Below are positions 3,001-34,726 of a stretch of 64,000 nt of DNA, one piece after another. Below the pieces are notes generated by a model. That model was not told where the DNA came from, searched no databases, and worked only from the letters and a program-made list of their open reading frames with translations. Each line of letters starts with the position of its first letter. Within the stretch, counting starts at the first letter, position 1. Origin of the DNA: Bilabrum cf. latius (taxonomy: Eukaryota); contig OZ237743.1 of the NCBI GenBank assembly GCA_965178125.1, positions 558,001-622,000 on the forward strand. The letters are read 5' to 3'. A program made the position numbers and the translations under genes.

Positions 3001-6000
3001 GGTGTCAGACCGCAACACCCGCAACGTGATCGTGCCCCACCGCCAGCGGGCCATTCTGGAGATCCACGGCGAGCCGCGCAAGAGGTCCTGGACCAGGCTG
3101 GGCGCCACGAGCGAGGCCGGATCGGACGTGATCGAGCTGCAGGAACCCGTGGACTGGCGTGTGGGCGACAGGCTCTTCGTGACCTCCTCGTCCGGCGACT
3201 ACACCCACCAGGAGGATGTCGCGGTCGTCGAGGTGCTCTCACCCACTCGCCTGAGGGTACACCCACCCTTCACGCGGTAGCACAGGCACCAAATCTTTGA
3301 CGGCGGGCCTTACGGACACTCGGATTCGGATCTTTCGGCGGCTGTGGGCCTCGAGACGAGGAACGTGGTGATCCAGGGATCGGGGTCCGAGCTCACGCAC
3401 GCGACGCAGCTGTTCGGTGGCCACACCATGGCCATGGGAGGTGGGATCTACCGCATTGAGAACGCAGAGGTGCGCAGGGCGGGTCAAGCTGGCATATTGG
3501 GGCGGTATCCCACGCATACTCACATGGCCGGCGCCCAGGCCAAGTACCACTACGTCAAGTCGCTGGCCGTGCACGACACCAACCAGAGGTGCGCCACCAT
3601 CCACGGCAGCAAGTACTACACTGTGTTCTCCATCGCTTGCACTCGCGTGAGGGGCCACAGCGTCTTTGTGGAGGACGGTGCCGAGGAGTGGAACGTGATC
3701 GACGAGAACCTCGTGTCTCGCACGGTCAAGATCTTCAACGGGCTCAAGGGCGACCTGAAGCCGGCGTCGTTCTGGACCGCATCCCCAAAGAACATCTGGA
3801 AGAATAACTTTGCTGCTGGTGGGTCGAACGACGGTGCGTGGGTAGAGTTGCCATCGCATCCGCACGGCCCCAGCTACTCGCTCAATCTGTGCCCGCAGCA
3901 CGACAGGCTCGGGCAGTTCATCAACAACACCGCGACCGCCAACGGGGTCCACGGGCTGCGCATCTACCCGTCCTATGTCCCATGGAAGAACCCTTGCAAC
4001 TGGCAGGAGGGGCCTCCTGATATGTACGAGACGTTTGCCAACCTGACCGCGTTCCGCAACGGTGGCAACGGCGTCTTCAACAAGATCGGGGGTGCCATCA
4101 ACATCAAGCACAGCAAGCTGATGGGCAACTCGATGGAGGAGGAGCGCAGAAGGACTCTTGTTGACGTGTACGGCCCTCCCCTGCACCAGCCCAACTCGGA
4201 AGGAAATCTCTACGTGCGCGATCCGGACGCGCCGCTAGATGACAGCGTGGTAGACGACAACGTGGCTCTCTTCGCCCCCCAGGACGAGTACTACTACGGC
4301 AAGGACCTGACCTTCGTGGGGTACGGCAGCGGAGGGGCCATCGCGGGGTGCGCCAAGTGCGACTCTGAGATCAACAAGAAGCAGGGCGGGTACACGTTCC
4401 GGTTCTCGGGGCTCCGATTCGTGTCGTCAGCAAAGCGGGTGCGCTTCACCATGCCGTACAAGTAGATCTTCCAGGACGATGACGGCAGCCTGACTGGCAC
4501 TGCCGGCGGCTGGGCGACTGCCTACCGGGCGTTCAACGTGTGGCCTGGACAGTGCGAGAGGAGGGAGGGCGACGAGTTTGACGGCGGGATCGTGTGCGGT
4601 AGCTCTGTCAAGGTGAGGCGCATCGCGGTGGATGGATTCAGGCCCGACGCCCTGCAGGATCAGATGCTCGCGCTGACCGTCAGGCGGGGCACCCAAGACG
4701 AGAGCTGGGACGTGCAAGAGTTTGACACCAAAACCGAGTACGGGTGGGTGAGCCCGGTGGTGACCACCAAGCACTACGACCTGTCCTTCCGTCGCTTCGA
4801 CAACGACCGTCCCCTGAACATCGACCTGGACTGGGTCCGACTCAAGCTGTCGGACCCGGCGTACGTCGATTCCGATGCGGATGACGAGTGGGTCACGCTA
4901 GCCCTGAACCGCACCTACTATGCTCACCACATCCGAGTGCGCATGCCCTTCGACGATGAGCACCAGACGGTGGACCCCGGCATGGACGGATACCTCGAGC
5001 AGAACCCCTCCCGTGCCGCGTACGCAGAGGACAGGAGCAAGTACTGGGAGAGGCCTCCCATCGGGGCGTGGGATGGCAATGTGTTCGGCCGGGAGCGGCT
5101 TCCCATCCCAACGGATGACATGGGCACTGGTTTTTACAACCAGTCCTCCAACACCTGGACCGTAGTGCTGAACAACCGGAACGTAACCGAATCAAGCGAA
5201 ACGCACCACGACTCGAAGGGTGACTGGAACCCTCACCGCCACACCAAGCACAGGATTGAGGCAAAGGCGATGCAGTGTCCGCCAGAAGGATGCGATGATC
5301 CCACGGTCATCAACGTGGAGGGAGAAGACAACTGGAGCTCCTACTTTGCGGGCAACGGTACTCGGGACGACCTGGTTGTCCCCCCGGGCCTCCGCCTCAT
5401 CTTCGACATGAGCGAATCGCCCGTGTACAGGCAGGTCCGGGTGGAGGGCGAGGTCGTGTTCCTCAACGATGGGAGCTCCAGGAAGCTGAACTGCGAGCAC
5501 CTTTTAATCTTTGGCAGGGTCGTCGTGGGCACTGAGGACGAGCCGTGGAAGGAGGGCAGCCAGGCCGAGATCCAGCTGCACTCGCTTCGAGGAGAGGTGG
5601 ATGACGGCGCTGTTGTGGACAACGACATCTACCTGGACGACAAGGTCATCTTTGTGGCAGGTGAGCTGCTCATGCACGGGCAGAGCCGGCTGGCGAACTG
5701 GGCCAGGCTGGCAGTCACGGCAGAGGCAGGAAATTCGTCGATCGTCTTGGACCGAAACACCGACTTGCAGCCCGGTGACAGGCTGTCCATCACTCCAACC
5801 GAATGGCCGGGGGCAGGGTCAGACCCGCTCGAGACCGAAGAAGCTGTGGTGGAGTCTGTCGGCAGCGACGGCCGGGCAATCGTGCTCGAGAAGCCCCTAG
5901 AGTACCGCCATTTCGCAGGTGAGGTCGAGTCGGGGTCGTCGCAGACGGTTGCCCTCCGTGCCGCGGTGGGCCTTCTGACCCGCAACGTGAGGATCACTGG

Positions 6001-9000
6001 AAATATGGAGCCCGATGGCGCGGATGGACTCAGGGACACGTTCGGCGGCCACATAGTCGTTTCTGAGATGTACGGTGCCCGCAACCCAGTCACTGGCATG
6101 AGGGGCACGTTCCAGGGGCGCGTGGACCTGCACTCTGTGGAGTTGGCAGAGCTCGGCCAGGGTGGAATGGAGCACTCCGCGCTGCTACTGCAGTTTGCTC
6201 CTTGGCGCACGGAGACGCCGGACAACCCCATCCAGACTCTGGAAGGTTGCAGCATGCACAGCATGCACAACTACGTGGTCAAGGGAGAGGGTCTCAGGAA
6301 CCTCGTGGCCAAGGACAACGTGTTTGCAAGCATCGTGAAAGGTGGCATCTACCTGGACGACAAGTCCGTGAACGCGACGGTCGACGGAAACCTCGTGTCT
6401 GGGCTCTTCCGAGCTGCAGACGAGACGACGAGGCTGGCACGGAACCGTGCCGCGTTCTTCATCGATGTGGAGCCGCGCAGCCTGCGAGGCAACGTGGCTG
6501 GCGGGATCTACGACACGGGCTTCACCCTTCGGCCGACTCGATGCGAGCGACCGTTCGAGTCGGTGGGCGCCGATGCGATTCGGGGCAACGAGGCGTTCGC
6601 GGGCAAGATCGGGTTCTTTGTTCTGTCCACGCGGAGCATGGAGGAAGACAAGTGCGTTTAGCTGCTGGACCAGCTAGCGTGGAAACAGGCGCACGTGGGA
6701 GTTCTCACCGTGGACCAGACGGCGCATTTCAGGCTGGATCGAATCACCGTGTCGGACAGCCACATTGGCTTCTCTCCCAATTTCAGGCGGGGGGGGAGCA
6801 TCAAGAGTTCCTACGTCGTGGTCCAGAACTCTCGATTCGTCGGCGTGTCGGACGCGAACGCGTGCGACGCCTTTAGGGAGTGCCACGCCGCGGGGGAGGG
6901 CGACGCGTGGGGCAGCAAGTGCAACTCCGTGCTGGGCTCCGGTTTCCTGACCGCGGGCATTCTCACTGCCCAGTTCACTAACAGGGGCAAGACGTGCACC
7001 CACGACGACGAGGTCGCGGTGTGCGAGCCGTCCAACACCCCGACCCGCATGTGCGCCATGCCGTGGGAGAGGCGGTACGGGCTGCCCTCCACGAGGCATG
7101 CCGAGTTCCACGTGCTCGACACGAGCTTCGTTGGGTTCGGGTCCGGGTCGAAGACGTGCGGCAATGACGCGTCTCAGCACACGAAGGCCATCGTCAGTAA
7201 CCCGTCCCAGGTAGACTTCTTCCCGCCCATGAAGCTGCGAGGCATTGACTGGCACGACACGGAGCACGCCGCCAAGTTCCATTTCTTCAAGCGCAGTGGC
7301 GAGACCAAGTAGCTGTGCGTCGACCAGGGATGCGACTCGTTCGGGCAGGTGTTCGTCACCGACCTGGACGGATCCACAGTGTCGAGCAAGAGAGCCGGGG
7401 CACACGTGCTCTCGGGGTGGGATCCGGGACACGCCGTCTCGGCTCCGGCCTGCGCGGGGGTGTCCGAGTGGCGGGGCATCGAGTGCGGCGCCGGTGACAC
7501 TCCGCCCGGTGCCTCGGCCAAGTCGTACCTCAAGCTTGTCCCGGCCAGCTTCGACAACCTTGATAGGGACAGGGGCTTCAGGCTGATCGGTCCCGTACAG
7601 GTGCAGCGGGAGGCGGCGCCCTCTGGAGAGTTCCGCAACACGTCAGCGGTGGGCCCGATTGCGGACCCTTGCGCCTTGCGGTTCCCGTTCAGCCAGTACC
7701 CCCACGTGCTGGAGACGGGTGTGACGAACAGGGTGCGGTTCGGGGGGACCCTCCCGGGCACCCTTCGCGCGGGGTACTTCTCGTCCGACCCCAACGACGT
7801 CAGCATCGTCAAGCTGTTCACGCAGAGGCCGAACGCCATCGAGGTGTTCTACAACGGGAGGCTGGTGGCGCCCGTCGCAGGCGACGCGCTCCCCACCCTC
7901 GCCGATCCAGCGGGCTCCAACAAGTTCGATCCCCAGTCCAGGCACCTCTTCCTTGTCATGAGGGGGGGCGATCCAGGGGCAGAGTACCTGATCCGGAGAC
8001 GATCCTCGGTACAGCTGGACCTGACGCTGGCCGTGTCTGTGGACGAATTCCAGGGCGACAACGTGGTGCAGAACCTGGCCACCCTGCTGTCCATCCCAGC
8101 GGATCGGATCAAGGTGGTCAGCGTGGAGGCCGGGTCCGCGAGGATTGCCGTGGAGATTTTGGACGAGGCCGAGTCCACTCTGGACCAGGGTGCCACCGTG
8201 CAGCAGGTGGGCCGGCTGGTCCAAGTGGGCGCCAGCATCAAAGAGGCGCTCACCGGAGGCCAGCTGGACCTGGGATACCCGGTCGAAGACGCTGAGGTCG
8301 GCATATCCAGGCCGGCGCTTGAGCCGCCTCCGTCGGATGAGGCCATGACGAGCGAGAGGGGAACCGTGCTGCCGCCTTCAAACCCCGAGGTGGACCAGCT
8401 GCTGCAGTCAGTCATGTCCAACGGATTCACCGACCTCGCGGCGCCGGCGGTTCCGCTTTTTGCGGGCGAGAACATCACGTACAACAACGTGACGATCCAG
8501 GGATACGTGGACACCAACTTGGACGACGTGTCTGACGCGGTCGGGGTGCCAGTACCCCTTGCGGCCGATGCACCGCCGGTTCCCGGCCGCAACACGACCA
8601 ACCGCGTCATTGTCCCCAGGGGTGGCGACGATGGGAGTTCTGGCGACGATGGGGGCGATGACGGCCTGCCTATGGCTGCGATCGTGGGCATCGCCGTGGG
8701 AGCCGCGGTTGCCCTGGCTGCTGGTGTGGCCGTTGTGCTCGTGTGCAAGGCAGGCAAGGACTAGAGGGAGACAGCCCCTTCAAATGGGACCAAGAAGGGA
8801 GATAATGGCACCATGTCGACAAAAGGGAGCAAGTACCTCGTGGGCTCCAATGCCAGTGCCAGTGCTTACGCCAACAGTACGCTCGCCGCGAGAGCAGCTG
8901 CCAACCCGCAGCTCGCGACAGTGCCACCGCCGCAGGCCTCAGGGACACCACCACCGGCAGATTGCGCCCGTCACGGATCTCGAGTGCACCCTGCCGGCGA

Positions 9001-9289
9001 GATCGTGGAATCGGGCGGCAAGGCGGCATTCGTTGGCCAAAAGGACGAGTTCCGAGGAGAGAATCCGGGACTGGGCCCCAGGGCTGTGGGCATGGCCGGG
9101 CAGTTCGCGGGGCGCAGCCGGGGGATCAGCGATGCCGCGCCGCGTGACGCTGCCCTCGTGACGGGTTTGGACGCCTATAGGGCGGGAGGCGGCGGGCAGA
9201 GGCCCCACCCAGGCCGTGCAGCGTCTCGCCCGTTGAAGGTGCGTACCGGCGGACCAGGTTCATCTGGTCGCCCCGCTTGGAAGGCTTGA
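2..9289 (+). CDS. Fibrocystin-L / PKHD1L1-like large type I membrane protein (IPT/TIG repeats, two G8 domains, parallel beta-helix, C-terminal TM); 5' end probably outside the window; TAG read as sense
   Basis: ORFs 2-2197, 2321-3280, 3344-4465, 4538-6661, 6695-7312, 7349-8764 and 8813-9289 share one frame, separated only by TAG (2195, 3278, 4463, 6659, 7310, 8762); ends TGA 9287-9289. IPT motifs (GGTNITIRGEGFG, GGATVTITGHGFG), G8-like segments (WSARTTWAGNEPPVEGDTVIIPEGQAVLLD; VRVEGEVVF), VGLLTRNVRI, TM AAIVGIAVGAAVALAAGVAVVLV. Confidence 0.85.
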
Positions 9290-9811: not shown

Positions 9812-10352
9812 TCGCAACGCGATTACGCTGGGAGAGACAGTGGCAGGCAAGAAACGCGGTAGAAATACACAAAACCGACAACTAGTCGAGCAGTGCATCT
9901 GATGGAGGCAGCTGGGCCGCACGCGGTTCGAGATTTTATGCAAATATATGGCTAGGAATTTGTCTATCTCGGAATTTCTCCGCCAGATGCATGGCAGAGG
10001 GGAAATCTGGCGTTGCTTCGGGTACCGGCTCTCGGTTTTATTTTGCCCTCGGGTATGCGGTTGTAACCGATAAAACGATGAACGTTCACGAACATCGCCG
10101 AAGCGCGTGCCCACCGGTGCGATCCCTGCACGTATAATTTCTTTGATAGGAGAGCACAATCATCTTGCTTCTAAAGTAAATCCATATAACGTAATATTTG
10201 GGCCAAATATACTGTCTAATCATCCAGTTGTTTGAGTGAGAATTGCTTTGAGCGGACATGTTCTGGCGAAAATATTGATGGGGCCATTGTCATGCTGCGG
10301 CTTTCCGAACCCACTAGCTCTCCCTTTTATACGTGCAGGCATAAATTGCCGA

Positions 10353-13300
10353 ATGCAGAGTACAGGACCAACAATTGCGTCCGACCTGCCCGTGCGATCG
10401 TCTTCGGATGAATCGTATACCTTCCACCAGAACCCTGTGAACCTTGCCACGGCTGGCAAGCACGTAGTTATTGAGGATGCTAGCGACCTTAAGCCGCTTG
10501 CGAGCAAGCGAGGTGCGGCTAGTCGTTCCGGTGACGAGCATTGGTCATGGCAGAGGCACGTGATCGATTTCTGCGAGGGCAAGTCGTGCCCGAGCCGTTC
10601 GCAAGCCACGATTGGCCTTCTCCTCGTAGCTGGCCTCGTTGCACTTGTTGGATTCAGCGTTTATTTTGCTTAGAGTGGCGACGAGAGCAACGGCGGTGAC
10701 GTATTGCAGGGAGATGCCAGAGCTGGCACAACGGCATATTTGCAGGCGAGCATAACGCTCCGCACGAGCCACGGGAATCCTGCCTTCGAGTACGGTTCCC
10801 CCGCCGCGATTGCATTCTGTAACGCCGTGGAGGAAACCGCTTCCCTGCCGTCCGAGACTTGCAACGTCACGGCCATCCGGCCTGGGCTGATCGCCAGCTA
10901 GTCGAGGCAGAGGCAGCTGGCAGGAGCCAGGTCCTGGGCCAGCACAGAGGTGGAGGTGACACTCAGGTTGCCGCCCACCCACAGGCCAGCCCTCACTGCA
11001 GATGAACTCTCGTCCGAGCTTGGCGCCGCTTTGTCGCAGGCAGCCGAATCGGGCGCGCTCCTCGAGTCGCTGGCCCAGCACGGGGGCGGCCTGGGACTCG
11101 ACGGGATCGTGGACATCGACGTGGGGGAAGATGCGGCTCGACCGGCACCCCCCCCGCTGCCATCAGGCACGCCCACGCCATCCGTATCGCCCACACCGTC
11201 CATCACGCCGACGCCGACTCCGACTCCGTCCATCAGCCCCACGCCGGCGCCCATCCTGGCCCCGGTGCCAGGCGGGCCCATCCTCCGAGTCCCCCTACAG
11301 GCAGGCCCGTTTATGCTGCGGAAATCGACGCAGGGAGTTCTCATCCGCATGTTCCGGACCAACAGTGGGGACTGGTCTTAGGCTGGCAAGGAGACGCAGG
11401 TCCCTGCCGGCATGTCGTACGACGGAAGGGACTGGGAGTCCCAGCCGCCGCTGTACCTGACGTTCGACTGCCAGCCCCCCTTCGAGCCCCGGCCGAACCT
11501 GTGCGCGGTCGATCTGATGAGCATCGATGGCTCATAGCTCAACGGATACACGTACTGGGTGCAGGCGCACGCCGCTCCCGAAGCGACCGACGCAGAGCTC
11601 GCCTCTCGCTTCTTGATGAGCGCATCTTTCGGCGGGACGAAGGCCCAGATCGAGTCGTTTCACCAGGCCCCGCAAGGCGGCAGGTCCCAGCAGGAGCACC
11701 ACCTCGAGGCGGCGACCGAGTGGGTCCGCAAGCAGCAGGAGGACGTGCCGCCCACTCTGCACAGGGCCATGTTCCGGACCCAAGCCAACCCTCCCAACAT
11801 GATACGGGCAGAGACGGGGGGCTATCGCGGCGCGTGCGAGGTGAACTCGAGGTGGGTGCCGTACGCCATGACCATCCGGGACGTCAAGGCCCGCAGGCTG
11901 CACTTCGAAGGCATGAAGCTGTTCGTGGACGGCATGCCGCGCTCGATCATCACCGAGAATGCCACCTTTGAGGACGTTGACCTCGGGAACGGTCCCTGGA
12001 TCGTGTGCAGCGTGGAAGAGCGTGTCGGTGGGCGCGTCTCGTTCGGCATGAACTGTAGGTCAAGGCTCAGCAACCCGCAGATCTCATTCGAGGGCAACGG
12101 ACCGGACGGCCGAGTCGCCATGGTCAACCCCACGATGCAGGCAGTCCCAGCCCCGGCCAGCGATGTGTTCGTCCTGTCTCGGGCACCGTCCAGCTGCAGT
12201 GCTCCTGGGTTTGGGCCCGTGTTTGCCCGCACCACCTCGAGCAGCTCCAGCCTGCCGAAGTGGCTCATGCTAGAGAAGAGGCTGAGGCTCGTGGCCAACG
12301 CACTAGAGGCGCCCGCACAGGCAGTGCAGGGCGAGCACGGGGTGTGTCCGACGGTAAAGAAATCTTTTCTCAACGCGCACACGTGCGTGCCAGCGTCGTC
12401 CGGGTGCTCCAAGCCCCTGTACTCTTCGGCGCACTTCGTGCTGAATGAGACCTCGGCCCGCCCCTTCTTTGAGATCGAGGGCTAGTTTGTGTACGTTGTC
12501 AAGGGGCTCCGGCTCGACGACGCGAGAGATCCGTGCCGCGAAACCACCACCAGGTGGAGGCGCATCACCGACGACCCCCAGTGCTCGCAGGCATCCGCCG
12601 CTGGATCCAGTGAGATTGACGAGACCACGCACGCCTGGCTGGCCGGGCTGCTGGAGGAGGCGGACGATGGGGCCGCTGTGGTGGACATCCGCTCGCGCGA
12701 CTCGAGAGAGTGCACGCTGGCAGAAAAGGGTGTGCGCATTGAGGTGCAGGACAACTCGACGGGTACACAGGTGATGAGGTGCTGGGAGCACGTGCATGCA
12801 CAGGAGCTGTCCGTGTACGACATGTCATTCTGGACCGAGCACCACGATGGGAACAGGGACGCGTTTAATGGCCGCAGGCCTAATCCCATCAAGGCACCGG
12901 CACTGGCTGGCTCTGCCGTGATGCAGTACCCGTCGTGGCACGACATGCGTCGCTGGGACGGTAACGACCACCTTCACACGTACCTTGGTCGCGTGGGCGA
13001 ACGCGTGGATTTCGCAGAGCTGCCGCGCTCGATGCAGTCCAAGAAGATGGCGGCGCACTTCGGGTCGTCGCTGACCTGGGAGCGCGAAGACGACGGGTTT
13101 GAAGCTTGCGGGTCGCCTGGCGAGACCAGCAACGACCCTCGTGGTGGCAACCTGCAGTACTACACCATTTCGGAGGACGATAACATCAGCCAGCAGCAGG
13201 ACCTCGAGCAGTACACCGAGGACACGTTGGGCTGGTACACCAAGAGCAACGTGTGGCTGAACGTGGTCCACAGTGCGCCCGACTAGCTCCGTCAGAGGGT

Positions 13301-16300
13301 GGCGTGGGCTCTGTCGCAGATCTTCGTGGTGACGCAAGAGGGCATCGCGAGAGAGCGCGAGGGCGAAATCTACGCGAATTACTACGACATCTTCGTGCGG
13401 AATGCTTTCGGAAACTTCCGTGACGTGATGAAGGAGGTGTCCTACAGCCCCGCCATGGCTATCATGCTGACCTTCCTAGAGTCCAGGTCGCTGTACTACT
13501 CGTCCGAGGTGTCTCCGCGCAAGGAGCTGTATCCTGACGAGAACTACGCCAGGGAAATCATGCAACTCTTCACCACGGGACTCTGGCAGCTGCACCCGAA
13601 CGGGACTCAGAAACTCGATGGCAGGGGCCGCCCCATGGTGACTTACACCAACGACGACATTTTGGATTTCTCGAGGGCGTGGACGGGCTTCGATCAGCAG
13701 CTGCATCGGGAGAACATTGAGAACTGGGGCGGCGACAGGAGCCAGAACAACATCGACCCCATGTTCATTCGAGCCGACTGGAGGGACACCTTCCCGAAGC
13801 TGGGCCTGGGGCAGCGCTACATCGGTGATGGATATCCTGCCTGCTGGGACCTGCCCCCGCGCGCTTTCCTTCGAAAAGGGGCCAAGTACATCTACCTGGG
13901 ACAAGACGCCCTCGGAACACTGAACGGGGACCACGGTCACGTGCGCACCTACCCGATTCTGACGCTCGACTCTTCCAGCTCTAAGCTCTTCGAGGCGCTG
14001 TGCGGCGGACGGGGCGCGCAGGCCACTTGCAGCGCCATGCGCTCTGAGGTGGTCCTCGCAGCCGATTTGTCGTGCGACGGGGTGGAGTGTGACGTGCAAA
14101 CCGTGCGCACGGTGCAGGTGAACCGCGCGGGGAAGAACCCCGTGTTCTTTGAGTACGTGCGGGAGCCCTGTGTGGAGTTCGCCTTTGTGGAGGAGGGGAG
14201 GCAGAAGCCGCTCTCCGACCGCTTCCGCGAACGGAGTGTGTGCATCGATGAGCGGTTGCAGGCGGGTGTGGCGGCATGCAAGACGTCCCCAACCGACTGG
14301 AGGGGTGCTGTGTAGTGCTCGCACTACGGCAGCGAGCGATATGACTATGCCGAGGCGGAGAGGAGGTGCCGGGCAGATGGGTACGAGCTAGGCTGGTTCG
14401 ATGATCCGACGTGGCCCGCCTCCTGCGGCAGGTACACGCTCGGCAGGTCGTGGGGCAATGGCAACTGCTCGATCCAGGCCAAGGTCCACCCCGACGGGCG
14501 CGTGTCTGTCGTGCATGAGTTCGAAGGCCTCCCCTACATCAAGGGGGACCCGCGGTTGTGGAGGTCCAAAGACAAGTACGGCTTCCGCGTGGATTGGAGG
14601 TCAGCTTCGGCTTCCCCCTCGTCTTCGGCCTCGTCGGGAGCATCTTTGTTCCCCACTGTGGAGGAAGCAGTCAGTCGCGGCCTAGTAGACAATAGCACCT
14701 GCTGGATGCAAGGAGAGCTTCTCGTGTGCGAAGCACAAACCAGCACCGAGGCTGTCTTCCACGAGGTTCCAGCGAGTGCTGCCGATGTGATGGATCGGCT
14801 CCGAGTAGGCGCAGCTGATCCAGCGCTCTTCGACGCTGGCGCGTACGTTGCTTGCGACACTGCCGAGTGCTCGGCGTTGCAGGATGCTCACGGCGTGCGC
14901 ACGTACTTCCGCGCGGTTGTGAATGGCACTGCCGGGTTTGACGAGCGGACCGTGTTTGCGCTCACGTGGCACGGCAAGGCGCGATTCATGGTCAACGCGC
15001 AGAGCATGGTGCACGTGGCAGGGGGCGAGTACGCTTTCCGCAACCCGCCTCAGTTCATGTCCCACTGGGAGGTCGCTGCTCGCGATGCCCACCACGAGAC
15101 CGACGCGGTGCTGGGCCACTACATGGAACACCCCAACACCCCGCCCTTCGTGGCCGACTTTTTCATCAAGCGATTCACCACGTCCAACCCCAGCCCTGCG
15201 TACGTCAAGCGTGTGGCCACTGCCTTTGAGGAAGGCAAGTATGGCGAGTTTGGGACCAGTGTAATCGGCGACATGGCCGCCACCATCGCAGCCGTGCTGC
15301 TGGACCCAGAGGCAATGTCACCTTCCCTGGAACGAGAGCCGTCCCACGGTAAGCTGAGGGAGCCCATGGTCAAGCTCATGCACCTCCTGCGGGCGCTGGA
15401 GTACCGCCCGGAGGGTGGCAGGCAGCTGCGCATGCGATACTTTGACAACAGGCTGGGGCAGCAGCCGCACTCGGCACCCAGCATCTTCAACTTTTATCAG
15501 AGCGACTTCCGCCCCGGTGGTATGGTGCAGTCGTCCTCCTTGGTGGCCCCAGAGGCGCAGATCCTCAACACTCCGACGATCGTGAGCTGGCTCAACGGCA
15601 TGCTCTCGCTATTCGAGTACGGCCTCACAAGCTGTGAGCTCGGGTTCGGCGAAAGACCATTCTCGCACTCTCGCTGCGACGAGGTGCGCGATCGACGCGC
15701 CGGGTACGTTCCGGACGACTACTGGTCTGGGAACCTGACGTGGATGCCTGCGGGAGGGGACGAGCAGTCGGCTGCCGCCGCCGTGGAGGAGCTGGACCTT
15801 CTGTTGACGGGCGGTCGGCTGAGCGAATCCAGCAAGGGCATCATCCAGGAGGCCTTCCTGGCGCAGGCCAATGACACCTCCCGCACCTTGCGAGACGCCC
15901 GGAATGCTGCGGCTGAGCTGGTGGCGGCAGCGCCCGAGTTTCACTCCCTGAATGCCGGCCACGAGCCCCAGCCCGAACAGCTCGCCGTCGCGGCTGAAGA
16001 CGACAGCCCGCCTCCCGAGGAGTACAAGGCCATCGTGTACCTGTACCTCAGCGGCGGCCTGGACTCGCACAACCTGCTTGTTCCCCATTCCGAGTGCGAA
16101 GGCAAGGACCTCTACCAGGAGTACGTGGATGTTCGCGACGACGTCGCCCTTCCCCAGACGGAGCTTCTGGAGCTGGAGGTTCCTGCTGGCACGCAGCCCT
16201 GCCGCAAGTTTGGCGTGCACCATCGATTGCCGCTTGTCAAGGACCTGTACGACCAGGGCCAGGCGGCTTTCATTGCTAACGTGGGGCCCATGATCGAGCC

Positions 16301-17315
16301 GGTGACCCGAGAGCAGTGGAACGCCGGCACGGTCGAGCTTCCTCCGCAGCTCTTCTCGCACAACCTGCAGTCCCGGGCCACGCAGAACGTGCACGCGCAG
16401 AGCAACGAGGGCAGGGGCATCTTGAGCAGGGTGAAGGACGCGCTGCACTACTAGGGCGAGCTGGCCACCATGTACTCCATCTCAGGGAACAAGGTGGCCA
16501 TCGAGGGATCGCTGACGGGCGCTGCTGCCGACATTGTGGATCGACTGGGTGGTGCCACTCCTTTCGATGAGTACGGCAGGATCGAGCACCTGCATGAGTC
16601 GCTGGAGAGAATCGTGCGCAACGGCTCCACGTCGATCATGGCTGACACGTGGTCGAGGCAGATGCTCAACGCGATGGCGAGGTCCAGGAAGCTGGCCGCC
16701 TCGATCGACGTGCACGGCACGCTGAACCAGACCTTTGCGGCAACCAGCGGCGATTACAACTCTGCCCTCGCCCAGCAGCTGGAGCAGGCAGCTCGCATTG
16801 TTTCCGCGAGAAAGTACCTTCGGTCGTCCAGGGACATGTTCTTCGTCGACATCGGCGGCTTTGATTCCCACTCTGACGCGTTCGCCACTCTCGAGCTGAG
16901 GTTTCCCATGATCAACGCAGCTCTGGATTCATTCGTTCAGGAGATGAAGCTGCAAGGGGTATGGGAGAATGTGACGATCGTGCAGACGTCCGAATTCGCA
17001 CGCACCATCACGAGCAATGGTGCCGGCACAGACCACGCGTGGGGCGGGCACATGTTCATGGTTGGCGGGTCGCTGAACGGAGGCAGGATCCACGGCACGT
17101 GCCCGTCCCTGGCCCTGGATTCGGACCTGAACGTGGGTGGTGGTCGCGGGCGTTACATCCCCACCACGCCGTGGGAGGGTCTTTGGGACGGTCTAGCGAA
17201 GTGGTTTGGCGTAAAGGACGAGCACATGGACGGGGTGCTTCCGAACAGGAAGAACTTCCCGGCGGAACAGCTCATCCCACTGGATCAGCTGTTCAGGACC
17301 AGCTCCGAAGCATGA
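10353..17315 (+). CDS. DUF1800-DUF1501 fusion protein with N-terminal membrane anchor (~2320 aa); TAG read as sense
   Basis: Eight same-frame ORFs joined across TAGs at 10671, 10899, 11379, 11535, 12483, 13284, 14313 and 16452; ends TGA. DUF1800 motifs D*LRQRVAWALSQIFVV, RNAFGNFRD, PDENYAREIMQLFTTGL, HPNTPPF, TSNPSP, GKLREP. DUF1501 motifs YKAIVYLYLSGGLDSHN, LFSHN, GGFDSH, SEFART, GTDHAWGG. Start could instead be ATG 10278. Confidence 0.9.
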
Positions 17316-17494: not shown

Positions 17495-20400
17495 ATGCTT
17501 AATATAGTTAGTCAGTTTAGCAGAACGGGTCCTGATGGTACACCAGGTCCTGCTAAACAATCAGAGGCATATTTAAACAGGGTTTTCCGCTCGGAAACTC
17601 GCGCTCGCATCGCCGGATACCCTCAGATTCAAGATAGCGAACGGTCATCTGCAGCAGCTGGGCCGGTGCAAAATCAAAGAATATTGCTCCAGGCTAGGCA
17701 AGTGTTTGTGCGGTAGAAGTTGCCACCCCCGCCAGCAGAGCTTCCCCCGAGGCGAGCTGCATCACAACTACAAGTTGCTGCATCACCAGGGGTCGCTGAG
17801 GCCACTGCAGACGATGAACTGGTTTCTCTGCCAGACCACAATGAAACATTCAAGAACGCTAAGAAGCAGAAAGCTAGGAAGAACCGTGGGCGAGCTTCCC
17901 TTGTGATTACCTCCAGACGAAAGCGGCCGATACGAGCCAAGCCGGACACCCGCCTTGGCGTGCCTGCCATAAATGCAACGCCGTTGGTAGACATCGAAGC
18001 GCAACTGGATGCACTGGATAACATTGCAAAATCAGCCCAGGAGGCTGAAGCTCTCGAAGCTATGCACCGCCGAAACCGTGCTCGTGCTGGAGACTTGGCA
18101 AGGCGAGGCTGGTGCTCTGACGTGCTATCCTGTGGTATGTAGGGAAATTATGACAACTAGCAGTACAAAAAGGACTCTAAGTGCCCATCTGTATCGTATT
18201 GCTTGTTGTATTTCGCGGACTTGGGGTCCTGCATGATCCACTCGTAGCGCTCCGTAAGGGTGACTGGACAGCCCGATGCTGGAACCGATAAGGGCGCATG
18301 CAGATCGTGCAAGGAGCTCGCCGAATCGTGTGGTGCCTTGTTGCAAACAAGCTCAGGTACTGTGCCTACAAGCTGCAGCCGATACAGGCACAGCTGCTTG
18401 GCCCCTTCCGATTTCGCCCAGCTCGGAGTAGGTGCCGCCGGCAGCATCCGAATGCGGACAGCAACAGCCTGCTTCATTTTGCTCGTGTGGATAGCGTGCG
18501 CCCCTCTGCTCGCGTCATACTCATCGAGGTCCTCATGGCCACTCGTTAGTGAGCGATACGACTGGGCAGCGCTGCAACTCGGCACGGGGTCGCCTTCCCC
18601 GCTGGCCAAGCTCGACTACCCGTTGTTGGCGGGATTGAGCGCTGCCAACCTGGCGGCTGCAACAGAGTGGAGTGACGCAATTGCCCGCAGCACCACCAGC
18701 ATCAGCTCTAATGCTGACATGTAGTCATTTGTGCAAGCGTGTGAAAGCCAGTCCATGCCGAGCAGGGTGCACGCACAGGTACAGCAGGTCGCCGTGACAA
18801 AGGCAGCCTCGTACACCGTATCAATCAGCGGTGGGATCGTCCTCCTCCTGTTTGTCATCCTAGCCATCACGCTAAGAGCTACGTGCAACCGACGCAGCGA
18901 AATGGACAGGTCATTCAACGAAAGTGACTGTGCTGCGGTGTAGCCCGGCAGTCACGACCATAGGCTCTAGCGCCTGCGGGTGCATGGTACTTGCCTTGAC
19001 CCGACCACTCCCCTAGGCGCTGCATATGTCTCCAATCCAGATGATGACATCGTAGCCGCATCATGCAGCGCCCTTGCTACCACGAGCAGGCCCCATATTG
19101 AAGCGCAGGACTACGCTGTGCTCATCTCGGGGCTGTCACCTGGGGTCGGTGTTGGTGCTTTGCGGCGCAGGATTGCTCGTGCCACTGGCTGCGGCGTGCA
19201 CCAGCTCGTGCTCCTGCACCGAGAATCAACAACAGCCGCTGAATGCATCGAGAGGGTTGAGCTGGCGACTCGCGCTCGTATTCTTGCGGGCATGTCCGGG
19301 TTCAAGACGAGCCGACACCGGTTGCGCACAAGGCTGGCTCGACCTTTTGGCGCTGTACCAACGAATGGAGAACAGCAAATCGCTAAAGCCACCAGTGCAT
19401 TTCAAGGGCAACAGGGGTCTGAAACGAGCAAAATCGATGAGTCAAGCTCGGAGCGCAATGGATATACAGACCACCTCGCCGCCTCTGCGGAGGGTCTAGC
19501 GAGCCTGTGGCAAAGCGACGAAACACGTGTGGCCGAGGCGCATCGACGGCGAAGTGCAGTCATACAGGAGCTCAAGACATGCGAGTCAGAGCTTTCGCTC
19601 GCGGTGCAGCGGTATCCAGCGGGTCGGGGTGCCTTGCTGCGGCGAGCAACGGCAGGCTTAGTCAGCATGCACGGGGTTACCGCCGAGCCTCAGCAGAGAC
19701 CATCCAAATCTGCTGCGTTGCTGCAGGCATCCTCGGTTCAGCTGGGTCGCCCAACGCCTAAGGCGCAAAGTACGTCGTTGCTTACGAATGTGCCGAAGCC
19801 TGCATCCGCATCTAGGGCCGGTATCGGAGCCGACACAGTAGTCACCGAGAGGCAGACAGTTGCTTCACCCCCTGCAAATCTCGGCCAACTCGCAACCCAA
19901 GTTCCACTGCTGAACGCCGCAGACAACGGAGATGATGACGGGCAGTATCGCACGGGCTTGGCTGCATTTGGACAGCAGCTGTCGGAGATGGCGAGCCAGG
20001 CGACTGATTTCTTGGTGGAGCAGGAGGAGCTGGCAAGTTCCAGTGCCAGCAGCACCAGCAGTGAAGGCAGTGATCAGGAGCCGCAATCTGCGTCGCAAGG
20101 CAAACCGAGCCGTGTACGCGATAGAAATACAATGAAATCGTCCTCAATACTCTCTGGCGGCTACAGTTCCCACCGCAGCGTGGGACACTCCCTCGGTGGC
20201 CTCAGTGAACGGGATAGGGACGCAATCGCAGAGTCCTCCCGGTCGCTGGCATGGGAAGGTACCGTTTCTGCTCTCGGTCTTTCATCGCTGCTTGGTTGTG
20301 GTCCGCAAATAGCGCAGGCTGTAGTCTGCTTTGATAGCCCTATCGGTGTGTAGCGCGCAGTGGAGTTGGCAGATCTCGGCTTGTCATCGGTTCTGGTCGG

Positions 20401-23400
20401 GAGATCTTCCACCGTGTCTGGGCGGAATCCGTCAGTCATGCCGGCACCGGGTCCCCCACATTCCATTCTTTGGAAGCACGTAGATGGCGTCCACAGGTAC
20501 ACGTTCGTTCGAGGCTGCTTGCACGCGATGTGCTTGCCCCTCTGCCCAGGTAGCAATGCCAGGGTCACTGGCGAAGACAGACGCAGTGCCGAGAGAAGAA
20601 TGAACGCATCGATGGTCTCACTAGGGCTGGAGCGGGCCAAACAAGGGCACCAGACTGAAAAAATAGGCGTGGCCGCGTTTGCATCTGTAAACTCCGAAGA
20701 GAGTGACTGGGCAGGTGCGCCTGCCGTCACGCCGTTGTCGACGTGTGGAGCGGTTACAGGGCACGCAGAGCAGTGGGCGCACTCTTGTAGCCTTGGACTT
20801 CTAGTTCTTGCTGCATCTTTCATCGCATTGCAATCTTCAATACGTGCTTTTAGCCTGCCAGCAGATGCCCGACGCGCGTGGATTGCTGATGGATCAGGGC
20901 CAGGACTCCTCGGATGCGGTATTATGCCTGAGCAACATGCTACAGTCATACGAGTGCTTGCAACAGATCCTTTGTGGACAAACATACCTGCTTCAACAAA
21001 CTTGACGTGTCTAGCAGAAGAGCTTGTCGCAGATCGTGCACAGTCAACTGGCGCATTGCTGGGCACGCTAACACCTTGGGAAGTCGGTGGGTCGCGGCAA
21101 GACGCATGCGACTAGCTGACTACCATTAAAACCAAGCAAGATTAGTGGCCGTTCAAAGTGGCAGCAATTGTTCTTGTATTGCCGATCGTTGCGGACTGGC
21201 TCTCCGCATCGACGTTTGTTGGGCCTTGGAGGCAGCACCGTACGAGAGCAGTCGCTGCAGTGTCAGTGCATGCAATGGCTTTCGCTGGCGTGGGCTCGTT
21301 GCTCCTGGCCCACATTGACTTTGCAGGTGGTGCAGATGGGTTGACTACGGGTTTCTTGGATAACTGGGGTTCGGGCATCCTGCGGGATGCCACGGCGGTC
21401 GGGCTTCGCAGCTACCTTTCCTGCTTGACTGCCATGCTGCTTTGGGTGGCCGGACTCGATGCCCTGTGGTCAACCTTAACCATGATGTGGTAGATCATGC
21501 GCCACTCGAATTGTAGTGTTAATCTTGCTTCAGGGTGCATAGAGTAGTGCATGCAGTGCTCATGGGTGCGTGGGGCCGCGACGTACCCTGGAATAGCAGC
21601 AGTCAATGATACAGCGGCTGACGAATCCATTCGGGTAGAAACAGAGGAGAAGAGTAAAACAATCTCTGGTGTTTAGCGTTCAAAGCAGCTGAAGAGCATC
21701 CCATCTGCCACTCGACGCGAGACCAGAACCAAGCAAGCAGTGGCAGCGGAGGTACTATCCAACATGAAACCGACGAAGGCAGGCGTGAAGCGGCGCACAC
21801 CCGTGGCTGTCGCCTCTCCAGTGCTCCATCAGGATACGAAGCACCAGTCATACCGGAAAGCACGACGGACGAAGCTCGTGCTGCAGGCATGGCTTGATGA
21901 CAACGACCGGTTCGGCGGCAGGGTGAGCTCCGTGGCACCATCTTCAACTGTGTCGCGAAGAGACGGCCCTGCTTTTGCATCCATTCGAAACGAAGCTATG
22001 AAATTAGCACTAGAGGAAGGCAAGAGTCGTAATGTACCCGTTATGGTCCAATATGCAGGCCCTAGCAGCGAGTAGCATGTCGAGGGTGCCAGTGGGGTGT
22101 CCCGCTCGCAAGCCTCGACCAGTGGCGAGCTGGCGGTGCGCGGTGTAGCTGACCTGCACGGCTCCCTGCATCTGAGAAAGGAGTCCGACGCAAATGACCA
22201 CAATTTGTCTATGGTGTAGCTGGTCCGAGAGAGCCGGGAGCCTTCCTCAGGTGACTAGGTTGTTGCGCCGGCGCCCCCTGGCCAGCACGACAGCGACACA
22301 ACGAGCGGCGGCGATACACACCAAAGCAGTGCCACTCCTGATGGCGGGCCACTATCACCAAAACCAACGAAGCCTGGCCATGAAGAGGATGCCGCCGCTG
22401 CTTCTACTAGCGGCACATGCCCGCTGCCGGACCGTGGCACCGCAGCACTGTGTCGCCTCCGTGCAGCGGACGCGTGCCTGCCTCTGTGGTTCCACATGCT
22501 AGACGATGACATAGGTGGTGCAAGCCACGTGGAGCACGTGATCTATCCTCGATTGAGCAGAGCATTCTATAGCTAGGCAAGGCGAGCGACAGTGGTTGCG
22601 TTCTTGCTGTTTGCATCGGTGGCCCATGCAACGCTGCACCCGATGCTGTTGCTCATACCGACAGCTCACCTTCTATTCACCACAAGCGTCGATAGCGCTC
22701 GAATCCTGCACGAATCGCGAAAATGGAAACGCTGGAGCGACATGGTCTGGTGGCCAACGGCAGTGGCGGCGGGAAAGCTGGCTCGAGCTGTTGAAGCGCA
22801 GACCGGCCGGCTGGGACACCGTGACATGTACAAGATCTTCTTCGGTGAGCGGGATTAGAGGGACTAGGGCCCGAAGGCAACGCAAGGCAAGGCCCTTGCT
22901 GCTGCAGCCATGGCAGGAGTCGTCTCCAGCTCGGGCCCAGTCGGTATTTCCCTGCACGAGTAGCAATCGACCATCCCGAGCGCGGGTCTGCATCCTCGCG
23001 ATGAGTGTATCGTGCTTGCTTCAGAGGGGGCTCAATCTGTGCAGCGGGTGATTGAATACCGAGAATGTCTTGTTGATGATATCGTCGCGCGGTCTCCACC
23101 CGTGGCTGGTGGCAAGAAGGCGTTACGGACAGCAAGTGGAACAGCGACAGGCACTGGTACAGGCACTGGTACAGGCACTGGTACAGGCACTGGTACAGGC
23201 AGGTGGACGAGCAGTGCAGCAGAACAGGAAGCGATCGACCCACAAACGAACCGTCTCAAGGAAAACCAAACAGTGTAGGCTCGCAACTACGAGGAGAAAG
23301 GTCACACGGCCAAGGGCCAGCCGCCGCAGCCACACCAGCACCCAGACTCCTGGTCGCCGCACCTGCTCGACCTACAGGCTGTACCGGACCATGCAGCCGA

Positions 23401-24166
23401 TGCGCAGGCCGCCATGGATCTAGACGGAGAGGCATGCCTGATCAGCGGCGCGATCCTGGCAGGCGCGGCGTGCAATGCAGTCGCACTCGTCATCCACACG
23501 TCGCACGTGCACGCCATGCCATCGTCTGGTTTCATCACGGAGGGTCCAGGAGAGGAAGGGGACACGGCCGGAGGAAACCGGCAAGGTGCGACGAGTTCTA
23601 CGTACATGCACTGGCAAACGCTGTATCCGTGGCGATTTGCACAGCCCCACGTGCTGCTGTCGATGTTGCTCGGTTCCGCTGCCTGCATCGTGGCCCTGTG
23701 CACCGTGTTTTCATGGACGTGCTGCCCCGCAGGCCTCAGGTGCTGCTCGCAGAGGGCGCAAGAAGCGGAGCAATCAGCAAAATCGTCCAGCCACGGGGTA
23801 GCCAGCGGCCGCAGGGTATTTGGCAGCGTGGTATCTCGAATCAACGACCCTTCCAACGTCGCGAATGCCAGGGATCCGAGCCTGAGGCTTGGCGTGGCGG
23901 AGGCTCTAGGCATGGTGCGTGGAATCTCGTCCTACCTCCCGTAGGATAGCGCTACCCTGAGAGCCATGTATCCCATTCAATCAGAGGAATAGATTAAGCA
24001 GGTGTATCCTTCCCACTCGGCTGCAGCCACCATCTTCGAATTGCCCGACCGTGCCACCAAGCGTGAGTACGAGAAGCAAATGGGCAAGGTGCTGCGTGCG
24101 CTGGTGGATCCAGGGGCCTTCGCAAGGGATGATGACATTGAGTCCAGCTCAGATGGCAGTACATGA
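17495..24166 (+). CDS. Large multi-pass membrane protein, tentatively a divergent OSCA/TMEM63 (CSC1)-like channel with long low-complexity inserts (~2220 aa); TAG read as sense
   Basis: One frame from ATG 17495 to TGA 24164-24166 with about 23 TAGs and no TAA/TGA. Several hydrophobic helices. The ordered motifs QDYAVLISGL, AVVCFDSP and PAPGPPHSILWKHV resemble the OSCA cytosolic-domain motifs (TVLVxxIP, AFVTF, APEPxDIxWxNL). The gene is well supported; the family call is weak. Confidence 0.6.
23147..23201 (+). repeat. 12-bp tandem repeat (ACAGGCACTGGT)x4.5 encoding a (Thr-Gly)n tract
   Basis: Directly visible; lies within the 17495-24166 CDS. Confidence 0.95.
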
Positions 24167-27900: not shown

Positions 27901-29709
27901 ATGCGCTCTCAGTTTGCCACACTTGCACTGTGTGCTGCACTTGCGATTGCAGGCCCCCTCTCCAAGCAGGGGTCGGTTGTTCTCGAGTCCTCGGGCCAGC
28001 TGAAGTATGTTGAGGGCCAGCTCGTTGACGGCGCGATTGCTCGCGGAGTGTACACGGACATGGAAGACCGTCCGGTCTCGATGTTTGGAGAGCTTACGAT
28101 CCGGACGTCGAGCATGGGCGGCAAGGCCAACGATTCCGCCCAGGCCAGGGCTGCCGGCCTGCTGGAAGGCCACCTCACCGCAACCAGGATGAAGCAGCAC
28201 TACGACAACTGGAACCAGTGGTTGGTAGCCCAGGGTATCCCCCACGACAACGGAACGATCCCTGCCAAGTTCTACACCTGGTTCGGTCAGCAGAAGTCAT
28301 GGTCGGAGACGCAGGCTCGCGAGAACTTTGGAAAGGACGCCAACTGGACCCTGTCGCATCTCGTCGACCAGCAGTTCGAAGGCCTCATGCTCGGCTACAA
28401 CGCTGAGGCGGATGCCGACAAGCAGATCTCTCCGTTGGACCACTGGATGATCGTGTAGGGCATGGGCGATCTCCTGAACCTCAACACGATCCTGGACGAG
28501 GACCCGCGGCCGGTGTGGGAGCGCTTCGACAACACTGACGACCTACTGTCCTGGATGCGGGCCACGAGCCACTGCTCCGGGTTCGTCAAGGCCAATGGCG
28601 ACCTCAGCTTCCTGGCTTCGGCCCACGTGGCGTGGTTCACCTTCTCCTCCATGCTCAGGATCTTCAAGCACTACGAGCACGACTTCCAGACGGACGCCAT
28701 CAAGGCGCAGGACGTGTCCTACTCGAGCTACCCGGGCCTCCTGTCCTCCCTGGACGACTTCTACATGACTGGAAGCACCAAGATGAGCATGGTGCAGACC
28801 ACCAACAGCTTCATGGTGCCATTCACACCCGACGCCAACTCCGTGCTCGCGTGGCAGCGAGTGCGCATGGCCATGGCAGGCGCGGACAACGGCAAGGAAT
28901 GGTGCCAGATCCTCGGATTCCACCACAGCGGAACCTGTGAGCACTGTACCTCAATGCAATGCAATGCAATGCACCTATTGTGTCCCCCTACTCGAGATGC
29001 GCTCCCCCGACACGCCCCCCCATCCGCTTTCAGGTGCGCCCGTACCCCATCGATTCCATTGGCATGCGCAGACACCAACGCCTACCAGGTGACCGACTAC
29101 AAGCTCTTCACCCCGAGCAAGGGCCTGGCCAACAACACGCTCTGGTACTGTGAGGAGATCCCCGGCGAGATCCACATGGCCGACGTGACCCAGCAGCTTG
29201 AGAGGGGCTACTGGCCCTCCTACAACGTCCCCTACTTCGACGACGTGTACGCCAAGTCGGGGTACAGGTCTGCTCTCGAGTTCTGGACCAAGAAGGCGGG
29301 CAGCGACCCCAGGGCCCTGCAGAACCTCGCCCAGCTGGGCTACCAGACCGCCCCTCGCGCCAACATCTTCCGCAGGGACCAGGGCAAGGTGGACGATGCC
29401 GAGGGCATGAAGTGGATCATGCGCGAGAACCACTACAAGACGGACCCCTACTCCAAGGGCTCTCCCTGGAACGCAATCTGCTCTCGCGGCGACCTGGCGG
29501 GGTCGGCCGACGGTTGCTACGACGGCAAGATCACGACCTTCGACCTGATCGGAGAGCGCAAGGCCTGGGCCGTGAACGGGCCCACCACGAGCCAGCACAC
29601 CCTGGCGCCCTTCTCGTGGACTGGCGAATTCGCTAAGCTGCCTCACGAGGGCATGCCGACGACGTACAACTTCACCTTTGAGCTCACGCAGCCTGACCCC
29701 CAGGTCTGA
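27901..29709 (+). CDS. Phospholipase B-like protein (PLBD1/PLBD2 family, Ntn-hydrolase) with signal peptide; exons 27901-28936 and 29072-29709
   Basis: Signal peptide MRSQFATLALCAALAIA; GDLLNL, HCSGFVK (nucleophile Cys), SMLRIFKHY, SYSSYPGLLSSLDDFY, YWPSYNVPYF, PRANIFRRD, AICSRGDL, GCYDGK. One TAG at 28456. Removing intron 28937-29071 restores SGTYTN. Ends TGA. Confidence 0.92.
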
Positions 29710-33226: not shown

Positions 33227-33244
33227 TGTTTTTTCCAGAATGAG

Positions 33245-33931: not shown

Positions 33932-34726
33932 AGGCAACAGGCTGGGGGCCTGTGGGGGACCACACTGATGGCGAAGAATGGGAACTCGGCGGCATTGGCT
34001 GAGAACGGGGGGCCTTTGGCCTGAAAGGGTCGGGGGTCTTGTAGTCCTTTGTTTTTAGGGCTCCTCTGGATCTAGGTGATCACCCAAACCCCCTCGGGGG
34101 CGACGGTGCATCTGGGTGTTTATGGAATCTTTACCCAACAATGTATTTCTGTATTTCTGTATTTCATTCATGATGAACTGTTTCATCGTGGCCTTCTGAA
34201 CAACAGCAGCTCGACAATTCCTGGATGCCTACACGTCTACAAAACCATTCAAGTATGGCGGCCCAACCCACCACTTCTTCACACGCCGGCGGGCCAAGGT
34301 GTGGCACGACTGCTCCAGCACTGCCACTGCCGCATTGGCGATGTGCAGCGCTCACGGCCATCGGTACAGGAACGCTAGGTTGTCAATTTTGTCCTCTCGT
34401 GTGCCACTGAGCCTCTCCCAGGGTGCTTGTTGATGGCAGGATAGTTGATGAGTCAATGATGACCCAATGGTGTGGTGCGTGTGGCCGGGGTGTTACGTGT
34501 GCGAGGTACTCCGTTGATGGCATCCGAAAGTCTTCTCCAAAATCGGAGTGTACTAGGGATCACCCCTTTTCCTTCTTGGCATACTACCAGATTTTAGGAT
34601 AGCAAGCGAACGAATATTGATTTTCGAGCAGGAGACGGATGTCTTTCGCCGAGTAGCGTACACATAGCCTGAGGCATGAATTCCGATATAATCAGTTGGC
34701 CGAGTGCATTCATCCATTCATCCGCT

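Follow-up and report, generated by a model that had tools for sequence, protein, structure and literature searches.

Probable reassignment of UAG to glutamine in nuclear genes of Bilabrum cf. latius, and a candidate suppressor tRNA resembling tRNA-Tyr

What TAG encodes is the question raised by a gene in a window of 64,000 nucleotides (positions 558001-622000 of contig OZ237743.1, G000:C9) from the nuclear genome of Bilabrum cf. latius. The product of this gene combines a DUF1800 and a DUF1501 domain, and its reading frame (10353-17315) contains eight in-frame TAG triplets (at 10671, 10899, 11379, 11535, 12483, 13284, 14313 and 16452), no TAA and no internal TGA. The features concerned, in window coordinates, are as follows:

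10236..10338, + strand: intron (GT..AG) in the 5′ untranslated region of the gene, absent from contigs of sequencing runs X1, X2 and X3
10353..17315, + strand: coding sequence of the DUF1800+DUF1501 fusion protein, 2,320 amino acids, one coding exon, first ATG at 10353, terminal TGA
13239..13832, + strand: best-scoring stretch of DUF1800 (PF08811) by Pfam, amino acids 1002-1199 of P0001
13284..13286, + strand: in-frame TAG, codon 978, at the Gln of the DUF1800 motif D-Q-L-R-Q-R
16026..17120, + strand: DUF1501 domain (PF07394) by Pfam, amino acids 1931-2295 of P0001

Seven of the TAGs are located upstream of the DUF1501 domain and the eighth lies inside it. Fusions of the same kind occur among homolog matches in diatoms, parmales, thraustochytrids and dinoflagellates. 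By eye, the protein also displays a hydrophobic stretch near its N terminus and a Pro/Thr-rich linker.

The initial annotation had placed the TAG at 13284-13286 at the conserved Gln of a motif given as DQLRQR(V/M)A(W/F)AL, and the codons that it quoted, from GCG at 13275 to CAG at 13319, are found exactly at these coordinates. Residues were counted in the best 120 of 1002 homolog matches, with TAG masked as X in the alignment; the query of the homolog search carried Q at this site, which introduces a small possible bias. The column facing the TAG contains Q in 118 of the 120 sequences, H in one and E in one, and the neighbouring columns (D 120, L 118, R 120, Q 114, R 116, V 67 or M 37, A 117, W 93 or F 25, A 112, L 114) agree with the motif as given there. 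The proposed check on the Pfam column gave the same residue by a small margin: when codon 978 was read in 12 ways, PF08811 scored highest with Gln (104.5 bits), followed by Pro (103.1), Ser (102.4), X (101.5) and Tyr (100.6), so that the Pfam column favours Gln modestly, its lead over Pro being just 1.4 bits. The site had furthermore been called the best single one for assigning UAG. This holds within the gene, where it is the sole TAG in a conserved column (of the other seven, two have no aligned homolog and five face variable columns with a top residue at no more than 29%, one of these columns being R or K in 54 of 102 homologs), but not within the genome, where equally good sites occur in dyneins (Q in 14/14 or 16/17 paralogs) and at position 44 of the release factor eRF1.

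A single site cannot exclude a nonsense mutation; the genome-wide tests do exclude it. Nineteen dynein heavy-chain loci on 13 contigs (92,837 codons) were analyzed, in which a TAG was scored if aligned to at least eight paralogs. Once TAG is opened, 18 of the 19 loci become one frame of 4,300 to 5,333 codons, and 181 of the 407 in-frame TAGs in the whole set could be scored. The residues facing these 181 sites (Q 0.21, E 0.12, R 0.08, K 0.08, Y 0.01) may be set beside those facing CAG (0.23, 0.12, 0.09 and 0.08 for Q, E, R and K), and the TAG profile correlates with the profile of Gln, encoded by CAG and CAA, at r=0.997. Relative to Gln, the log-likelihood at the same sites is -40.5 for Lys, -41.0 for Glu, -214 for Leu and -227 for Tyr. 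Q occupies 17 of the 21 dynein TAG columns that are conserved at 70% or more, while among matches to the AAA_6 domain 12 of 28 contain stops, every one of them TAG. In the dyneins TAG represents 9.1% of Gln codons, and across 20 frames this share correlates negatively with the GC content of third codon positions (rho -0.86) and positively with CAA (rho 0.77); TAG therefore behaves as an ordinary synonymous codon.

In-frame TAGs were also retrieved from eRF1 (two) and from the Prp8 frame (four), and a long frame on a stretch of contig C12 likewise contains them. The first eRF1 TAG coincides with the Gln of PPKxQI at position 44, which is Q in 89 of 94 homologs. Prp8 provided no diagnostic site, the two TAGs in the searched stretch corresponding to one unaligned and one variable position. 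Within the window, the longest frame with TAG open comprises 3,330 codons; in 30 shuffled versions of the window it did not exceed 696, and opening TAA alone lengthens no long frame. Twelve window frames contain 102 in-frame TAGs in total (11.8% of their Gln codons); eleven end in TGA and one in TAA, 10 of the 12 scanned had Pfam matches, and in two of them TAGs are positioned 11 and 24 codons before the terminal TGA.

Gene ends were counted for those dyneins whose C terminus aligns within five residues of the stop (12 of the 19, the other seven having run off the fetched stretch or ended far past the last aligned residue). Ten of these ends are TGA and two are TAA, and eRF1 ends in TAA at the same place as eRF1 of Cafeteria roenbergensis, so that TAG is found at none of 13 homology-anchored ends (10 TGA, 3 TAA). 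These comparisons, together with the 118 of 120 Q at 13284, support the assignment of UAG to Gln made by the initial annotation, and we consider it very probable that UAG is fully reassigned to glutamine in the nuclear code, UAA and UGA remaining stops. A code with both UAA and UAG as Gln (table 6) was rejected, as TAA ends eRF1 and two dyneins and its opening extends no long frame. A context-dependent stop/sense code, as in Blastocrithidia and Condylostoma, was rejected on the 0/13 anchored ends, a small sample.

Contigs of runs X1 (study P1), X2 and X3 (study P2) were compared with the window over positions 10100-30000. GT..AG introns of three genes are missing from them, and in each run a single contig covers at least 10339-17360 without any difference or gap; the eight TAGs are thus unchanged in spliced contigs of both studies. 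As far as contigs allow, the retention of TAGs in intron-less sequences argues against their removal by editing or splicing. TAG and CAG are moreover exchanged between relatives: the TAG at 16452 is CAG in a relative sampled by run X4 that is ~94% identical here (16452 T>C, one contig, depth 6.5; the X4 contigs also cover 13185-13665), and a 92% relative (L103) has TAG at a position where this genome has CAG. The sequence of window positions 10200-17400 was in addition encountered (0.98-1.00 of words) in runs filed under three organism labels, and that of the 94% relative was filed under a fourth label; apparently the flagellate travels as a passenger in cultures.

A candidate decoder of UAG is present in the same assembly, from which the genes for this tRNA, for eRF1 and for glutaminyl-tRNA synthetase (GlnRS) were all recovered:

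G000:C23:907607-907679: tRNA(CUA) gene, 69.8 bits, all stems paired

It is the best-scoring nuclear tRNA among the 63 of 780 candidates that were scored, and a gene neighbouring it on C23 contains eight in-frame TAGs. No second copy was found in the genome within two mismatches of its D arm, and four further candidates with a CTA anticodon were rejected, not being tRNAs by ARAGORN. A tRNA with a UUA anticodon was absent among nine matches, in a tRNA inventory that is incomplete for the same 63 of 780. Stems were compared across 23 nuclear tRNA types, two of the stems being picked after the sequences were seen; the table is without His, Leu, Glu(UUC) and most Ser tRNAs (not retrieved), Asp (a pattern match only), and Phe, Cys and Ser(GCU), which were retrieved but left out. 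In this set tRNA(CUA) matches tRNA-Tyr(GUA) at 12 of 14 acceptor-stem bases (next best 6) and 8 of 10 anticodon-stem bases, together 20/24; among 243 pairings of tRNAs with different amino acids, none attains even 18/24 on these two stems. A five-base variable loop is a further likeness to tRNA-Tyr, and C1:G72 occurs otherwise in tRNA-Tyr only. The corresponding matches to tRNA-Gln(CUG) are 6/14 and 6/10 and those to tRNA-Gln(UUG) are 2/14 and 4/10, with the D stem of the latter identical at 8/8 (Tyr 3/8); the discriminator base is G73 as in tRNA-Gln(UUG), that of tRNA-Tyr being A.

The determinants of charging by tyrosyl-tRNA synthetase (TyrRS) in eukaryotes are given as A73 and C1-G72 (PMC9976931; here and below, statements from cited articles concern those parts of them that were available). 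The bacterial determinants for glutamine include G73, G2-C71, G10 and U35, the eukaryotic Gln column being blank in that table (PMC9976931); all four bases or pairs are present in tRNA(CUA). A suppressor descended from tRNA-Gln, the route proposed in PMC5304391, was not what the stems indicated, the best match being tRNA-Tyr. We therefore lean slightly towards tRNA(CUA) being a tRNA-Tyr copy turned glutamine suppressor, the choice being little better than even on sequence likeness; alternatively, it may be a mosaic or a convergent tRNA-Gln. Speaking against glutamine identity are the all-stem matches to the two Gln tRNAs (20 and 23 of 42, versus 29/42 for Tyr) and the retained C1:G72, a TyrRS determinant (PMC9976931). 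The all-stem value of 29/42 is itself reached by two of the 243 pairs for different amino acids, one of which (Met/Pro) has 12/14 in the acceptor stem. Exact 23-base pieces of tRNA(CUA) had no match in viral contigs or prokaryote genomes, a result that rules out identical copies only.

Two observations were made on other parts of the charging apparatus. An AT-rich tRNA-Met(CAU) exists in several nuclear copies (L188 at G000:C3:1096620-1097120, L029, L184, L194), with tRNA-Pro(UGG) ~300 bases from one of them and 12 of 14 acceptor bases common to both; perhaps this pair reflects another identity change, or copies derived from the mitochondrion. The GlnRS gene (L052:4075-6714, - strand) encodes F-G-L in the anticodon-binding region, where human GlnRS has K-R-L, the Arg of which presumably contacts G36 in E. 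coli.

The genome has one eRF1 gene and one pelota gene. In the N domain of eRF1, 19 of 92 conserved columns are broken, compared to a median of one in 84 homologs and eight in C. roenbergensis; the M and C domains have 8 of 95 and 9 of 64 broken columns, respectively, versus 6 and 9 in C. roenbergensis. Changes include, in human numbering, R28K, G29A, N30D, I35V, S60V, L69Q, F117P, N129S and K130H. In yeast, L69A raised readthrough slightly more at UAG (PMC4381064), and the equivalent of N129S was enriched in a screen for amber readthrough (PMC12440015). A loss of UAG recognition by this protein is nevertheless put in question by several points: G31-T32-S33, E55, NIKS, S70 and YxCxxxF are all intact; one of the 84 homologs breaks 21 N-domain columns, more than this eRF1; N30A was without effect in yeast (PMC4381064); and L69Q and N129S are also found in P0139, the code of which is not established, so that these two changes are probably not enough alone. 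The T32G change of the Iotanema type is absent, GTS being kept. Regarding the gene itself, its first TAG (within L005:1418-1426) is the final codon of exon 2 and directly abuts the intron donor, the exon borders having been set by homology and GT..AG ends rather than by RNA. Autoregulation of eRF1 through its own TAGs was considered and rejected, TAG accounting for 2 of its 16 Gln codons, which is the genome-typical share.

A possible mechanism begins with a copy of tRNA-Tyr, which would have become a suppressor by G34C and then a glutamine acceptor by A73G, with loss of the tyrosine discriminator, and by gain of a Gln-type D arm. The resulting tRNA(CUA) would be charged by GlnRS and decode UAG but not UAA, because C34 does not pair with A. 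In parallel, eRF1 would have lost most UAG recognition via changes around its core motifs, not within them. In its entirety, the account would combine an unreported code change in a stramenopile nucleus, recruitment of a tRNA-Tyr copy as an amber suppressor charged with glutamine, loss of UAG recognition by an eRF1 with GTS untouched, and at least two reassignments of UAG among bicosoecids (see L145 below); we offer this combination tentatively, as it falls somewhat short of an even chance.

The glutamine reading has to be weighed against observations that do not fit it easily. Four of the 21 conserved dynein TAG columns are not Q (D, V, I and E), the second eRF1 TAG, at position 69, faces L in 88 of 95 homologs and Q in 7, and the column of the L103 TAG is mostly E in wider homologs. 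Regarding the contigs, none of the runs is recorded as RNA, X3 carries a flag of probable DNA (yet has the same intron joints), X1-X3 are possibly not independent of the source of the assembly, and contigs drop rare variants, so that partial editing could have gone unseen. Could UAG then be mostly Gln and still ambiguous, acting as a stop in part of the genes or close to transcript ends, or receiving some tyrosine from a Tyr-like tRNA? The intact core motifs of eRF1, the finding of a single tRNA(CUA) gene with its C1:G72, and the fact that anchored gene ends number only 13 would all be compatible with such ambiguity, which we nonetheless regard as very unlikely: TAG is found at none of those 13 ends, genes with 25 to 60 TAGs would rarely be completed if termination were frequent, two window frames tolerate TAGs close to their terminal TGA, the Tyr share at dynein TAG sites is 0.01, and the A73 required by TyrRS is replaced by G73.

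That UAG stands for another residue (Glu, Lys, Leu, Tyr or pyrrolysine) is more improbable still. E, R and K are indeed the next commonest residues opposite dynein TAGs, but the same E/R/K background is present for CAG and CAA, and every alternative trails Gln by 40 log units or more. ARAGORN labels tRNA(CUA) as 'Pyl', a label derived from the anticodon, and a pyrrolysine system was rejected because the Lys profile is 40.5 log units worse. The resemblance of this tRNA to tRNA-Tyr could also be cited for another residue; the TAG/CAG swaps in two relatives speak against all of these readings. We attach a similarly minimal probability to the TAGs being removed from mRNA (by editing or as tiny introns), or being pseudogene lesions or assembly errors. 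This explanation could draw on the runs being only guessed to be RNA and compared as contigs, yet intron-less contigs keep the eight TAGs free of gaps, decay or errors would not yield TAG exclusively, and at sites of Gln, in genes that are essential and single-copy (eRF1 and Prp8, for instance), and a cognate tRNA(CUA) is present.

If UAG is indeed glutamine here, the codon table itself is already known and it is the lineage that appears new. UAG=Gln with UAA as stop is described for Iotanema spirale, Hartmannula sinica, Trochilia petrani and Protocruzia tuzeti (PMC11687900, PMC5304391, PMC10553269, PMC10089648). Iotanema shares the assignment, with UAA and UGA as stops (Panek et al. 2017, PMC5304391; PMC9161772), but is a fornicate sampled by transcriptome only, in which tRNA(CUA) was predicted, not found, and eRF1 has T32G in GTS (PMC5304391, PMC9161772). 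In contrast, the organism analyzed here is a GC-rich stramenopile with GTS intact and the tRNA gene in hand, and TGA rather than TAA ends most genes examined; judged from its sequence, eRF1 took a different route from the T32G of Iotanema. The ciliates H. sinica, T. petrani and P. tuzeti also combine UAG=Gln with UAA as stop (McGowan et al. 2024, PMC11687900; PMC10089648); in H. sinica and T. petrani no suppressor tRNA was detected according to the part of PMC11687900 available, UAA is the preferred stop, and UAG constitutes 18.5-31.8% of Gln codons (PMC11687900), as against the 9.1% and 11.8% of the dyneins and window frames. Rhizaria sp. exLh and three TARA ciliate metagenome-assembled genomes likewise reassign UAG alone (PMC5304391, PMC11687900), and exLh has a changed eRF1 position 69 (L69A) with intact core motifs (PMC5304391); they differ in that UAG=Leu and that the suppressor comes from a tRNA of the same amino acid (PMC5304391, PMC11687900). 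Genetic code 15 of crAss-like phages has the same table (TAG=Gln) but belongs to phages and bacterial release factors (PMC9523058).

The tRNA ancestry seems unexpected, and its nearest parallels are amber suppressors of E. coli that are charged with glutamine, derived from tRNA-Trp, fMet, Ser, Asn, Lys A73G and variants of yeast tRNA-Tyr (PMC9976931, PMC2965240), in which CUA supplies U35 and G73 favours glutamine charging (PMC9976931). Those are engineered and bacterial, whereas the present candidate occurs naturally, as a nuclear tRNA of a eukaryote; if correctly interpreted, it is a natural counterpart of laboratory identity switches of amber tRNAs. No report of nuclear UAG reassignment in a stramenopile was found in the openly accessible literature, and the assemblers of the genome may know of it. 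The word stramenopile is absent from the main text of PMC11687900, PMC10553269 and PMC12153298, the available part of a stramenopile review mentions no nuclear code change (PMC11412368), and that of the Cafileria paper mentions UAG just as a mitochondrial stop (PMC6723347). Codes that give UAG and UAA different meanings are uncommon, those described being from ciliates, one fornicate and one rhizarian (PMC11687900, PMC5304391). With tRNA, eRF1 and GlnRS in one genome, and close relatives alongside, it becomes testable how eRF1 can go on recognizing UGA and UAA after dropping UAG, and what decides on the amino acid given to a captured stop, the ancestry of the tRNA or the charging synthetase. 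An eRF1 that ignores UAG alone would also be useful for amber-codon expansion in eukaryotic cells (PMC12440015). On the practical side, gene calls made with the standard code in relatives break off at TAG (P0382/P0383, P0152).

A possible second lineage emerged from the best 80 of 377 metagenome eRF1 loci. L145, a contig of 1,310 bases, carries an intron-free, bicosoecid-like eRF1 (2-1291) ending in TGA, with two in-frame TAGs that both face Gln of its nearest relative, L139, and with altered stop-reading motifs (N61Q, L69N, S70A). It groups with sequences without in-frame TAG (Shimodaira-Hasegawa-like approximate likelihood ratio test, SH-aLRT, 99), and the approximately unbiased (AU) test rejected a tree constrained to unite it with the clade of the present organism (p-AU 0.0008). 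L145 may represent an independent UAG reassignment in bicosoecids or a decayed paralog, based on two codons in one contig.

The organism is placed by eRF1 sequence as a bicosoecid stramenopile near Cafeteria. The closest named eRF1 is that of C. roenbergensis (69% over the last exon), and in a tree of 36 rows (35 of 120 matches plus this sequence) it falls into a clade of 16 rows, C. roenbergensis and Bicosoecida sp. CB-2014 among them, that received a support of 100/99; a quick tree of 21 rows supported the bicosoecid grouping at 83. Weighing against a firm placement, this is evidence from a single gene. This eRF1 shares a long branch with an 88% relative, and its link with the Cafeteria branch has lower support (89/77). 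C. roenbergensis, which presumably uses the standard code, resembles the present organism in its intron-poor, GC-rich genes and differs in an eRF1 that keeps RGNGTS, TASNIKS, L69 and N129.

The assembly comprises 111 contigs totalling 48.6 Mb, and C12 bears an 18S array of 1.7 kb. Its mitochondrial contig C111 (L060-L063; 38,401 bases) uses code 4 with tRNA(UCA), as described for Cafeteria and Cafileria (PMC6723347), which is consistent with Bicosoecida, not diagnostic. ARAGORN found just 10 tRNAs on it, so most tRNAs must be imported. TAA is the terminal codon in 29 of the 30 long plus-strand frames, and a stretch of sequence is common to two frames, one near 27.7 kb and the other near 29.3 kb. 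A second 18S of 1.8 kb, unlike the C12 array, is located on C95 (17.9 kb; L001 / L059); by eye we take it to be ochrophyte-like, and it probably derives from a co-cultured alga in the assembly.

The other features of the window are:

2..9289, + strand: 3′ part of a gene for an IPT/TIG-G8-CEMIP beta-helix protein, 6 in-frame TAGs, TGA end
17495..24166, + strand: frame of 2,223 amino acids without Pfam match, 23 in-frame TAGs, TGA end
27901..29709, + strand: phospholipase B gene, intron 28937-29071, 1 in-frame TAG, TGA end
30515..33334, - strand: polysaccharide lyase family 8 gene, 6 in-frame TAGs, TGA end
34676..37939, + strand: gene for an SRCR-domain membrane protein, 4 in-frame TAGs, TGA end
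38117..43795, - strand: gene for an ankyrin-repeat protein, 25 in-frame TAGs, TAA end
43859-46030 and 46265-47911, + strand: two tandem ZIP transporter genes, 4 and 2 in-frame TAGs, both with TGA end
48319..58161, + strand: gene for a Kelch-repeat protein, 18 in-frame TAGs, TGA end

The polysaccharide lyase has a signal-like N terminus and is possibly of bacterial origin. Within the ZIP pair, the C-terminal halves are nearly identical and the N-terminal parts have diverged, indicating a recent duplication or gene conversion; when the two paralogs are compared, their TAGs face GAG, GAA and non-aligned codons, which are uninformative on the meaning of TAG. Elsewhere in the assembly, a short AT-rich dispersed repeat occurs at more than 10 places, for example at C4:1246589, C9:434761, C11:403979, C12:301717 and C22:354441.

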